A stretch of 64,000 nt of DNA from Escherichia coli (GCF_002854065.1 NZ_CP024147.1); one strand, 5' to 3'; shown: positions 21,797 through 35,340, numbered from the stretch's first letter. Notes: generated from the sequence alone by a model not told the origin. Numbers and translations are program-made.

Positions 21797-21995
21797 ATCC
21801 CACCCTCTCCACATGGAGAAGGTGGGGCTAATTGCCTAATGCGCTACGCTTATCAGGCCTACAGGATGCATCACAATTTGTTGAATTTGCACGTTCTTGT
21901 AGGCCGGATAAGGCGTTTACGCCGCATCCGGCGCGGCCCCTCTCCACATGGAGAGGGTTTGGGTGAGGGAAAAGCCTCACCCCAGCCCTCTCGGG
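21797..21995. repeat. extragenic palindromes (REP/BIME plus ccctctcc...ggagaggg-type elements)
   Basis: ccaccctctccacatggagaaggtgggg, gcctaatgcgctacgcttatcaggcctac, gtaggccggataaggcgtttacgccgcatccggc, ccctctccacatggagagggtttgggtgaggg between mtlA and mtlD. Confidence 0.7.
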
Positions 21996-22021
21996 TAAAA
22001 ACATTGATGAAGGTTAATACT

Positions 22022-23170
22022 ATGAAAGCATTACATTTTGGCGCAGGTAATATCGGTCGTGGCTTTATCGGTAAACTGCTGGCAGACGCGGGTATACAAC
22101 TGACGTTTGCCGATGTCAATCAGGTGGTACTTGATGCCCTGAATGCCCGTCATAGCTATCAGGTTCATGTGGTAGGTGAAACCGAGCAGGTAGATACCGT
22201 TTCCGGCGTCAATGCTGTCAGCAGCATTGGTGATGATGTCGTTGATCTCATTGCTCAGGTTGATTTAGTCACTACCGCCGTTGGCCCGGTAGTGCTGGAA
22301 CGTATTGCTCCGGCTATCGCCAAAGGGCTGGTGAAACGTAAAGAACAAGGTAATGAATCTCCGCTGAACATCATCGCTTGTGAAAACATGGTCCGCGGCA
22401 CCACGCAACTGAAAGGCCATGTGATGAACGCCCTGCCGGAAGACGCCAAAGCGTGGGTAGAAGAACACGTTGGCTTTGTCGATTCCGCCGTTGACCGCAT
22501 CGTACCGCCTTCGGCTTCGGCAACTAACGATCCGCTGGAAGTGACGGTAGAAACCTTCAGCGAATGGATTGTCGATAAAACTCAGTTCAAAGGCGCACTG
22601 CCGAACATCCCAGGCATGGAGTTAACCGACAACCTGATGGCATTTGTCGAACGTAAACTCTTCACCCTGAACACGGGTCATGCTATAACCGCGTACCTCG
22701 GAAAACTGGCCGGTCATCAGACCATTCGTGACGCTATTCTCGACGAGAAAATCCGCGCGGTGGTAAAAGGTGCGATGGAAGAAAGTGGCGCGGTACTGAT
22801 CAAGCGTTACGGCTTTGACGCTGACAAGCATGCGGCGTACATCCAGAAAATCCTCGGTCGTTTTGAGAACCCGTATCTGAAAGATGATGTAGAGCGCGTA
22901 GGCCGTCAGCCGCTGCGTAAACTGAGCGCAGGCGACCGTCTGATCAAGCCACTGCTCGGTACGCTGGAATACGGCCTCCCGTACAAAAATCTGATTCAGG
23001 GAATTGCCGCTGCAATGCACTTCCGCAGTGAAGATGATCCACAGGCTCAGGAACTGGCAGCACTGATCGCCGACAAAGGTCCGCAGGCGTCGCTGGCACA
23101 GATTTCCGGGCTTGATGCCAACAGCGAGGTTGTATCTGAGGCGGTAACCGCTTATAAAGCAATGCAATAA
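22022..23170 (+). CDS. mtlD: mannitol-1-phosphate 5-dehydrogenase
   Basis: Start set at ATG 22022 ([20 protein letters not shown]-binding motif), giving 382 aa; the track ORF over-extends upstream through the palindromes. Confidence 0.95.
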
Positions 23171-23757
23171 TGGTGGACCAGGCGCAGGACACCCTGCGCC
23201 CGAATAACAGATTGTCAGATATGCAGGCAACAATGGAACAAACCCAGGCCTTTGAAAACCGTGTGCTTGAGCGTCTGAATGCTGGCAAAACCGTGCGAAG
23301 CTTTCTGATCACCGCCGTCGAGCTCCTGACCGAGGCGGTAAATCTTCTGGTGCTTCAGGTATTCCGCAAAGACGATTACGCGGTGAAATATGCTGTAGAA
23401 CCGTTACTCGACGGCGATGGTCCGCTGGGCGATCTTTCTGTGCGTTTAAAACTCATTTACGGGTTGGGCGTCATTAACCGCCTGGAATACGAAGATGCGG
23501 AGCTGCTGATGGCATTGCGTGAAGAACTAAATCACGACGGCAACGAGTACGCCTTTACCGACGACGAGATCCTTGGACCCTTTGGTGAACTGCACTGCGT
23601 GGCGGCGTTACCACCGCCGCCACAGTTTGAACCAGCAGACTCCAGTTTGTATGCAATGCAAATTCAGCGCTATCAACAGGCTGTGCGATCAACAATGGTC
23701 CTTTCACTGACAGAGCTGATTTCCAAAATCAGCTTAAAAAAAGCCTTTCAAAAGTAA
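23170..23757 (+). CDS. mtlR: mannitol operon repressor
   Basis: 195-aa ORF immediately after mtlD (start overlaps mtlD stop). Confidence 0.9.
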   Translation: MVDQAQDTLRPNNRLSDMQATMEQTQAFENRVLERLNAGKTVRSFLITAVELLTEAVNLLVLQVFRKDDYAVKYAVEPLLDGDGPLGDLSVRLKLIYGLGVINRLEYEDAELLMALREELNHDGNEYAFTDDEILGPFGELHCVAALPPPPQFEPADSSLYAMQIQRYQQAVRSTMVLSLTELISKISLKKAFQK

Positions 23758-23768
23758 GCAACGTCTGC

Positions 23769-33193: not shown

Positions 33194-33969
33194 TGATTGT
33201 TTTACCCAGACGCCTGTCAGACGAGGTTGCCGATCGTGTGCGGGCGCTGATTGATGAAAAAAACCTGGAAGCGGGCATGAAGTTGCCCGCTGAGCGCCAA
33301 CTGGCGATGCAACTCGGCGTATCACGTAATTCACTGCGCGAGGCACTGGCAAAACTGGTGAGCGAAGGCGTGCTGCTCAGTCGACGCGGCGGCGGGACGT
33401 TTATTCGCTGGCGTCATGACACATGGTCGGAGCAAAACATCGTCCAGCCGCTAAAAACGCTGATGGCCGATGATCCGGATTACAGTTTCGATATTCTGGA
33501 AGCCCGCTACGCCATTGAAGCCAGCACCGCATGGCATGCGGCAATGCGCGCCACACCTGGCGACAAAGAAAAGATTCAGCTTTGCTTTGAAGCAACGCTC
33601 AGCGAAGACCCGGATATCGCCTCACAAGCGGACGTTCGTTTTCATCTGGCGATTGCCGAAGCCTCACATAACATCGTGCTGCTGCAAACCATGCGCGGTT
33701 TCTTCGATGTCCTGCAATCCTCAGTGAAGCATAGCCGTCAGCGGATGTATCTGGTGCCACCGGTTTTTTCACAACTGACCGAACAACATCAGGCTGTCAT
33801 TGACGCCATTTTTGCTGGTGATGCCGACGGGGCGCGTAAAGCAATGATGGCGCACCTTAGTTTTGTTCACACCACCATGAAACGATTCGATGAAGATCAG
33901 GCTCGCCACGCACGGATTACCCGCCTGCCCGGTGAGCATAATGAGCATTCGAGGGAGAAAAACGCATGA
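33193..33969 (+). CDS. lldR: GntR-family L-lactate operon regulator
   Basis: Start set at ATG 33193 ([23 protein letters not shown]...), giving 258 aa; GntR/FadR-type HTH. Confidence 0.9.
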
Positions 33970-35156
33970 TTATTTCCGCAGCCAGCGATTATCGCGCCGC
34001 AGCGCAACGCATTCTGCCGCCGTTCCTGTTCCACTATATGGATGGGGGTGCATATTCTGAATACACGCTGCGCCGCAACGTGGAAGATTTGTCAGAAGTG
34101 GCGCTGCGCCAGCGTATTCTGAAAAACATGTCCGACTTAAGCCTGGAAACGACGCTGTTTAATGAGAAATTGTCGATGCCGGTGGCGCTAGGTCCGGTAG
34201 GTTTGTGTGGCATGTATGCGCGACGCGGCGAAGTTCAGGCAGCCAAAGCGGCGGATGCGCATGGCATTCCGTTTACTCTCTCGACGGTTTCCGTTTGCCC
34301 GATTGAAGAAGTCGCGCCAGCCATCAAGCGCCCAATGTGGTTCCAGCTTTATGTACTGCGCGATCGCGGCTTTATGCGTAACGCGCTGGAGCGAGCAAAA
34401 GCAGCGGGTTGTTCGACGCTGGTTTTCACCGTGGATATGCCGACACCGGGAGCGCGTTATCGTGATGCGCATTCTGGAATGAGCGGCCCGAACGCGGCAA
34501 TGCGCCGCTATTTGCAGGCGGTGACGCATCCGCAATGGGCGTGGGATGTGGGCCTGAACGGTCGTCCGCATGATTTAGGAAATATTTCGGCTTACCTCGG
34601 CAAACCGACCGGACTGGAAGATTACATCGGCTGGCTGGGGAATAACTTCGATCCGTCCATCTCATGGAAAGACCTTGAGTGGATCCGCGATTTCTGGGAT
34701 GGCCCGATGGTGATCAAAGGGATCCTCGATCCGGAAGATGCGCGCGATGCAGTACGTTTTGGTGCTGATGGGATTGTAGTTTCTAACCACGGTGGCCGCC
34801 AGTTGGACGGTGTACTCTCTTCCGCTCGTGCGTTGCCCGCTATTGCAGATGCGGTGAAAGGTGATATAGCCATTCTGGCGGATAGCGGAATTCGTAACGG
34901 GCTTGATGTCGTGCGTATGATTGCGCTCGGTGCCGACACCGTACTGCTGGGTCGTGCTTTCTTGTATGCGCTGGCAACAGCTGGCCAGGCGGGTGTAGCT
35001 AACCTGCTAAATCTGATCGAAAAAGAGATGAAAGTGGCGATGACGCTGACTGGCGCGAAATCGATCAGCGAAATTACGCAAGATTCGCTGGTGCAGGGGC
35101 TGGGTAAAGAGTTGCCTGCGGCACTGGCTCCCATGGCGAAAGGGAATGCGGCATAG
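33966..35156 (+). CDS. lldD: FMN-dependent L-lactate dehydrogenase
   Basis: 396-aa ORF; alpha-hydroxy-acid oxidase family motifs (…[10 protein letters not shown]…). Confidence 0.95.
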
Positions 35157-35159
35157 TCG

Positions 35160-35340
35160 TTTGCGCCCCCTCACCCTAACCCTCTCCCTCAGGGAGAGGG
35201 GAACGTTCGGCGCTGTATGTACTCCCTCACTCTGAAACGACACCGCACTCTTTTTTTCTCCCTCGCCCCTCTGGGGAGAGGCCGGGGTGAGGGGAAAAGG
35301 CCGCACGGCTCACCAATTTTCTGCTATCCTGCCCCCGCAC
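35160..35340. repeat. ccctctcc/ggagaggg-type extragenic palindromic elements
   Basis: ccctcaccctaaccctctccctcagggagagggg and cccctctggggagaggccggggtgagggg between lldD and trmL. Confidence 0.6.

Follow-up and report, generated by a model that had tools for sequence, protein, structure and literature searches.

The stretch analysed here (the 'window') comprises 64,000 nucleotides of an Escherichia coli chromosome (GCF_002854065.1, NZ_CP024147.1), running from the end of avtA through yiaT-W, aldB, selAB, mtlADR, yibL, lldPRD, trmL, cysE and gpmM into the waa cluster for the lipopolysaccharide (LPS) core. Along it, at gene ends, lie short palindromic sequences that a preliminary description had sorted into two distinct extragenic families—classical REP units at five sites, with a further one placed without coordinates after the GH127 gene, and a second, G/C-rich type—and had proposed as recombination or insertion hotspots at the ends of accessory segments. 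The classification proves correct: the palindromes very probably represent two classical, dispersed intergenic families of E. coli, REP units assembled as BIMEs and BoxC, whose co-location with segment ends is mostly a coincidence of permissive sites. For both families the data here show directly what the elements are, that they lie outside genes, that they can form strong hairpins, that they are multi-copy and that their length varies very strongly from strain to strain.

The window holds 11 REP units at six loci, in BIME-1, BIME-2-like, atypical and single forms (Table 1): BIME-1 with the long L linker at avtA/ysaA and again at mtlA/mtlD, Y+Z2 pairs at two further loci, an atypical Z1–Y pair and a single unit. 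Fuzzy matching to the Y, Z1 and Z2 consensus, under published REP and BIME definitions (PMC3333891), located ten of them, and scans for tail and head motifs the eleventh, the degenerate unit between trmL and cysE. All five sites named earlier hold genuine units, by consensus match and by the REP tail CTTATCMGGCCTAC, which at up to two mismatches occurs 10 times against 0.45 expected (none of 100 shuffles equals that count), every match being extragenic; the copy after the GH127 gene lies at 5474-5558 and forms the sixth locus, and the BIME described after the adhesin gene is likewise present. Each unit is an imperfect palindrome of 30–40 nt matching Y, Z1 or Z2, with the conserved GTAG/CTAC at its foot, and all lie between annotated genes, one GTAG overlapping the GH127 stop codon. 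The pairs alternate in orientation, as Z1-L-Y in the two BIME-1 and as Y/Z2 in the two BIME-2-like pairs; other strains carry four and six units in tandem. Queries bearing a BIME match a median of 17–21 places per E. coli genome, the extra places being REP-length matches, and shuffled controls fold far less well than the REP hairpins (z -3.3 to -6.0 for the latter).

The second family, known variously as BoxC, PIT or TMECO, is an intrastrand-triplex motif with the consensus CCCTCNCCC-N3-6-GGGNGAGGG-N3-GGGNGAGGG and 23 strict copies in MG1655, for which a triplex was shown in vitro and is not supported in vivo (Holder et al. 2015, PMC4666352). We built a profile hidden Markov model (HMM) from the 23 published copies. 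Two of the loci previously assigned to this family, at 21797-21995 and 35160-35340, do hold BoxC elements. In the lldD-trmL spacer a type A element on the minus strand and a type B element on the plus strand are orthologous to K-12 TMECO 17 and TMECO 18; the former equals K-12 3781028-3781061 (Table 1 of PMC4666352), and a 41-mer taken from it matches a median of six places per genome, while the latter has lost one G in the window, a 1-nt deletion in the middle block. Both BoxC loci are paired, one from TTA-loop and CCG-loop copies, the other from TTT-loop and CTG-loop copies. The 'short copy' proposed at 40945-40965 (+) is not BoxC: it scores 1.3 bits (E 32), below the best shuffled sequences, matches the pattern nowhere at up to three mismatches, and folds no better than shuffled controls (z -0.31; 78 of 200 shuffles fold as well). 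What the site holds is a weak hairpin of 5 bp where gpmM has its stop codon.

Spacers between lldD and trmL measure 197, 196, 185, 153, 72 and 47 bp, and the BoxC pair is wholly missing (47-bp spacer) in 1482 of 5426 genomes. The previous 3' limit of 35340 has to be drawn in, as BoxC ends at about 35295 and a separate hairpin at 35327-35349 (CTGCCCCC-GCACTAA-GGGGGCAG) stands directly before the trmL start codon. This hairpin, which is not BoxC, is invariant in all six lldD-trmL alleles, stays while the upstream pair comes and goes, and may overlap the trmL ribosome-binding site. In the 153-bp allele (strain TUM9812 and several natural isolates) the sequence between the two BoxC copies is replaced by a perfect inverted repeat, CTGTCTCTTGATCAG-ATCTC-CTGATCAAGAGACAG, whose arms resemble the IS50 inside end; a footprint left by a transposon end, or a very small MITE (miniature inverted-repeat transposable element), may be its origin. 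Neither BoxC spacer (lldD-trmL or mtlA-mtlD) contains a sigma-70 promoter or intrinsic-terminator consensus, nor a T-tract terminator, which fits the lack of promoter or terminator activity in published tests (PMC4666352). Rfam has no BoxC family, and the sub-threshold matches to microRNA and other families in both spacers are noise.

The remaining BoxC locus lies in the mtlA-mtlD spacer, where the HMM alone gave 8.4 and 5.9 bits, no better than shuffles; membership was decided by a fixed-gap pattern together with a reciprocal covariance model. On the plus strand, 21938-21969 matches the three-block TMECO pattern with two mismatches that are mutual pairing partners (C-G to A-T), a result obtained in none of 100 shuffles, and two inverted blocks follow. 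A covariance model built from mtlA-mtlD orthologues only recovers the canonical K-12 pairs at hrpB-mrcB (49.8 bits, E 2e-13) and ygfF-gcvP (49.5 bits), which shows the element to be a genuine BoxC member, namely an A+B pair in compact tail-to-tail form; the same model finds a Pseudomonas pair at 29.7 bits.

This pair is single-copy in 5404 of the 5426 genomes. An exact 20-mer from its apex was found in 15 species genomes, in 14 of them within the same mtlA-mtlD spacer of other genera (Klebsiella, Enterobacter, Raoultella, Leclercia, Pseudocitrobacter, Pluralibacter, Silvania; also E. albertii). As an exact scan favours conserved copies, the locus was re-sampled with a degenerate pattern in the start of the mtlD coding sequence, giving 120 metagenomic loci chosen independently of the spacer. 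Wherever the MtlD N-terminus shows 0.86 or more identity to that of E. coli—that is, in Enterobacteriaceae-level relatives—every sampled spacer has the five-block unit C1-G2-G3-loop-C3'-C2' at the same position, with a conserved leader of mtlD after it; Enterobacterales farther away have other hairpins in this spacer. In the latter (MtlD identity 0.72-0.80) the spacer, of some 93-101 nt and without BoxC, presents a conserved GC hairpin, a terminator-like T-run and then another hairpin; the mtl operon seems in general to have a structured spacer between its cistrons, built from different sequences. In several lineages outside Escherichia, the stretch from the mtlA stop codon to the BoxC pair also holds REP-like hairpins, of other sequence types (e.g. 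TGCCCGGTAGCACTCACGCTTACCGGGCCTA, GCCCGGCAGTGCGCCGGGC), a distribution that suggests repeated, independent insertion of palindromes at the same spot.

With 35 distinct sequences aligned, the long G2G3:C3'C2' hairpin is paired in 94.8% of cells, a value reached by none of 500 shuffles; four pairs show compensatory changes and eight are invariant, and the apical loop is free in length, with sizes between 5 and 26 nt. Over the stem columns identity is 93.8%, compared with 48.6% for 46 fourfold-degenerate sites in the neighbouring mtlD. The C1 block, judged by eye, is kept in 35 of 35 sequences, and in most of six sequences tested it gives an alternative fold within about 5 kcal/mol. We hold it possible, rather than probable, that selection maintains the pair as an intercistronic structure, either a bistable RNA or one formed in DNA, which would set relative mtlA/mtlD expression or transcript processing. 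Such a role would account for the constant position in every relative above the 0.86 identity limit, for the stem identity relative to the fourfold sites, for a paired and compensated hairpin beneath a free loop, for the retention of C1 with its two nearby folds, and for fixation in E. coli while other BoxC loci come and go; but the conservation is mainly of primary sequence, with eight pairs that never vary, and all BoxC copies are unusually uniform, so that homogenisation across the family or a common binding factor could be explanation enough, with no role in mtl. The published absence of promoter or terminator activity in such motifs counts in the same direction, as do literature searches on a structured element at mtlA-mtlD, which gave nothing relevant in the papers covered.

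The BIME-1 in this spacer is bordered on its left by a hairpin (fold -20.7 kcal/mol, z -4.1) that repeats 21938-21958 in direct orientation over about 21 bp and is found only in those Escherichia alleles that have the BIME. BIME and left hairpin occur only in Escherichia (E. coli, E. albertii and Escherichia sp.), the BIME being missing from the other genera sampled; this restriction marks the BIME, as we read the alleles, as a derived, Escherichia-only insertion into an older BoxC pair, with duplication of the C1-loop-G2 hairpin. Spacers in E. coli measure 94, 217, 228/229, 318 and 419 bp, with 0, 2, 2, 4 and 6 REPs respectively. Because the 'empty' alleles are of two distinct kinds, with a hairpin loop of TCAC or ACAT, they point to recurrent loss through recombination between the duplicated hairpins rather than to a kept ancestral state; empty alleles number at most 1639 genomes, an upper bound since the query joined both flanks of filled alleles into one place. 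A second BIME, between ehaG and lldP, is also flanked by a direct repeat, the 10-bp CTAAGGGCAA at 31133-31142 and 31263-31272, which is the 5' arm of a downstream hairpin; its alleles are full, collapsed to one perfect hairpin (O157), missing (EC21Z-151), or deprived of Z1 together with the adjoining island (K-12 type). IS200/IS605-type chemistry is not known to make target duplications, and the 10-bp and ~21-bp repeats around these two BIMEs would not be what such a transposase leaves. Literature searches for published BIME empty sites or target duplications gave nothing relevant in the papers covered.

Taken together as one history, the mtlA-mtlD BoxC pair would be an ancient selected structure predating the Enterobacteriaceae radiation, with two competing folds and a later Escherichia BIME inserted in, and duplicating, its first hairpin; we regard this fuller account as doubtful. 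It would make the pair an exapted BoxC copy or, conceivably, the founder of the family, and the choice between C1:G2 plus G3:C3' and the long G2G3:C3'C2' hairpin would adjust how mtlA and mtlD are processed or expressed relative to each other.

To place the palindromes with respect to accessory segments, the window was aligned to K-12, O157 Sakai and Nissle and every structural difference mapped. Relative to K-12, the window has AraC-MFS-GH127 genes in place of plaR..sgbE, is without the rhsA island, carries, from yibL to lldP, DUF3251 and a trimeric autotransporter adhesin of 1737 aa (EhaG/UpaG in the annotation of other strains), and differs in waa core type. One of about 15 large-segment breakpoints falls inside a BIME (the EhaG/UpaG loss) and one lies ~25 bp from a BIME (Nissle); the others, ~13 of the 15, are inside genes, at 6-11-bp microhomologies, at IS1 ends or in repeat-free spacers. 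The preliminary description had named just such a comparison with other genomes as the check on its hotspot proposal, and most large-segment junctions do map away from the palindromes, the outcome that it had said would refute it. What survives of the proposal is local: REP and BoxC elements cover ~1.2% of the window yet hold six of the eight indels of 5-250 bp seen in the three genome comparisons, a behaviour already published for both families (BIME unit number; TMECO variable loci).

That REP/BIME and BoxC, as sites of recombination or insertion, made the accessory-segment boundaries we consider quite unlikely. The case for it is clearest at the 6.5-kb DUF3251-EhaG/UpaG island (24627-31177), whose K-12-type loss has one identical junction in 1263 of 5426 genomes: the right end falls at 31177/31178, within the BIME, where the Z1 stem gives way to the CTAC tail, with homology restarting at 31178, the CTAC itself, and thus at most 1 nt from GGCC^TAC, the position at which the REP transposase TnpA-REP cleaves in vitro (PMC3333891). 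A REP-linked origin of this loss is suggestive; it is a single event, and the 10-bp filler at the K-12 junction, AACACAGTAT, has no donor in the window, O157 or Nissle, or in any allele examined, nor are there intermediate alleles among the 5426 genomes. The segment missing in Nissle, which ends ~25 bp from a BIME, and the published ties between TMECO loci and variable regions lean the same way, whereas the great majority of breakpoints lie away from any palindrome, the BIME after the GH127 gene sits inside a deleted segment and not at its edge, and two breakpoints in 15 is, on a rough estimate, close to what random placement within intergenic DNA would give.

We favour, then, two dispersed families at permissive sites. 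Insertions would be tolerated only between genes, which is why the elements mark gene junctions; accessory segments also begin and end between genes, so most of the co-location would be coincidental. Units would be gained and lost through slippage or recombination between the elements' own repeats, making them small-indel hotspots and not general island boundaries. By analogy with the literature on these families, the elements would be transcribed within 3' untranslated regions or intercistronic RNA, where their hairpins would slow 3'-to-5' decay and modulate the upstream gene; the L linker of BIME-1 would bind IHF at the DNA level, gyrase or Pol I would be further binding partners of REP/BIME elements, and REPs would be substrates of the REP-associated Y1 transposase. 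Two observations weigh against this explanation: the strict cross-genus conservation of the mtlA-mtlD BoxC pair sits poorly with purely neutral, unstable repeats, and the single island deletion ending inside a BIME at the in-vitro transposase cut position makes REP-mediated rearrangement possible for that event. That the palindromes are ordinary gene-end hairpins or terminators, alike by chance, is highly improbable and refuted everywhere except at 40945-40965, which is indeed such a chance likeness. In its favour they are GC-rich hairpins placed just 3' of stop codons; against it, motif counts lie far above shuffles, matches are multi-copy across genomes, T-tract terminators are missing from both scanned spacers and one pair matches published members exactly.

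Table 1. Palindromic elements of the window and breakpoints of its larger structural differences (positions counted from the first letter of the window).
Feature	Position	Strand	Details
BIME-1, convergent avtA/ysaA	188-294		Z1 188-221(+), L linker 222-256, Y 257-294(-); RNA fold -43.9 kcal/mol, z -5.6; kept in K-12, O157, Nissle
BIME-2-like pair after GH127 gene	5474-5558		Y-like 5474-5508(-), its GTAG containing the GH127 stop codon; Z2 5520-5558(+); fold z -5.9
BIME-2-like pair just 3' of aldB	9334-9424		Y 9334-9372(+), 12-nt linker, Z2 9385-9424(-); fold z -6.0
Hairpin CCCACCCTCTCC-ACAT-GGAGAAGGTGGG	21799-21827	+	Diverged direct duplicate of first BoxC hairpin (C1-loop-G2), left of BIME
BIME-1 within mtlADR operon	21830-21937		Z1 21834-21862(+), L linker 21863-21898, Y 21899-21932(-)
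Compact tail-to-tail BoxC/TMECO pair	21938-21995	+	C1 21938-21945, G2 21950-21957, G3 21961-21969, C3' 21975-21983, C2' 21986-21992, GGG 21993-21995
Atypical BIME after EhaG/UpaG adhesin gene	31133-31272		Z1 31153-31181(+), 21-nt linker, Y 31203-31237(-); Z1-Y pair with short linker spans 31148-31237
BoxC/TMECO type A (published TMECO 17)	35167-35200	-	Exact consensus match (35168-35200); HMM 35.4 bits, E 7e-10
BoxC/TMECO type B (published TMECO 18)	35260-35294	+	HMM 25.6 bits, E 8e-7; aligned to K-12
Single degenerate REP, convergent trmL/cysE	35829-35875		Tail/head motifs; fold z -3.3; kept in K-12, O157, Nissle
plaR..sgbE loss in window	1043-1053		Joins at short microhomology
K-12 AraC-MFS-GH127 deletion	1158/5180		Both ends inside genes
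K-12 210-bp deletion	5370-5579		Between GCCAGCC repeats; takes out GH127 3' end and the BIME, which is inside, not at the edge
Segment missing in Nissle	1054-9439		Homology restarts at aldB stop codon, ~25 bp from BIME 9334-9424, the last element of the segment
Fic gene site (gene present in O157 and Nissle)	11095-11103		No palindrome
Two IS1 copies	12168-12935, 13021-13788		No palindrome at ends
rhs island site	17808-17839		No palindrome at ends
htrL segment	46803-48085		No palindrome at ends
waa core block	51007-56329		No palindrome at ends

Several further features of the window deserve a record. Strain 100416 is near-identical to it. The two IS1 copies (Pfam DDE_Tnp_IS1, E 6e-78) lie in the yiaY-selB interval as direct repeats with 85 bp separating them; the second has an 8-bp target duplication, GAATTTTG, and the first has none and adjoins a 208-bp deletion that takes out the 5' end of yiaY. 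Both are private to the window lineage, being missing in strain 100416, K-12, O157 and Nissle. Comparison of window 1043-1158 and 5180-5369 with K-12 shows the pseudogenes ysaC and ysaD to be what remains, at the 3' end, of two genes intact in the window, those for the AraC-family regulator and GH127; it is therefore probable that the yiaK-sgbE operon once stood together with the AraC-MFS-GH127 cassette at the ancestral locus. Within the adhesin gene, 27240-29454 holds a 255-bp tandem repeat array (four copies, 94% identical) and numerous 43-nt units of YadA-stalk repeat; the gene differs in length between the window and strain 100416. At 59349-59387 (-), upstream of the waaQ-side LPS core operon, the JUMPstart RNA family (Rfam RF01707) scores 55.2 bits, its threshold being 35; the element is a known and expected feature.

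Set beside known systems, the REP loci share with E. coli REP/PU elements organised as BIMEs the Y/Z1/Z2 consensus, GTAG/CTAC tails, inverted pairs, L or short linkers, extragenic positions at gene 3' ends and variable unit number; nothing essential differs, the GH127 copy being a diverged Y that overlaps a stop codon and the ehaG-lldP copy having a short non-L linker between Z1 and Y. Two Rfam RNA families built on particular BIME transcripts match in part: naRNA4 (RF02564, from REP325), whose model positions 1-31 match the Y REP at 21902-21932 with 39.1 bits against a threshold of 59.5, and ES036/CssrF (RF02751), which reaches its gathering score, as a partial model match, on the BIME-1 linker at 214-256(-). 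With REPINs and their RAYT/TnpA-REP Y1 transposases the window shares the paired inverted REPs and, in the K-12 deletion, a junction at an iREP CTAC, the TnpA-REP in-vitro cut site; unlike those systems, it contains no RAYT gene. From BoxC/PIT/TMECO (PMC4666352) come the three-block consensus, the inverted pairs of type A and type B, the intergenic position and the strain variability, the lldD-trmL pair being TMECO 17+18. The mtlA-mtlD copy departs from this description in having 8-nt blocks, by the C-G to A-T compensatory change, and hence failing the strict published pattern, in being a compact pair without the sixth block, and in being fixed in E. coli and constant in position across genera where published TMECO loci vary.

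Catalogues of REP/BIME and BoxC elements in E. coli go back decades, and that they are linked with intergenic polymorphism is already published. What we add is largely corrective: the second family now has its name, one pair has been matched to published copies, one claimed copy has been removed, and accessory-segment boundaries in this region turn out to be mostly unrelated to palindromes. The occurrence of an mtlA-mtlD BoxC pair at the same position across the whole Enterobacteriaceae is new here, a single modest lead and the only item that we think worth following up. BoxC has no known function and is described as an unstable family, and a fixed, cross-genus copy offers a concrete, genetically tractable place in which to look for a role. 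The same site provides a dated example of a BIME entering and leaving a spacer and, should the pair indeed be an ancient structure, would be a rare case in which the polarity of BIME gain, and of recurrent repeat-mediated loss, can be read directly.

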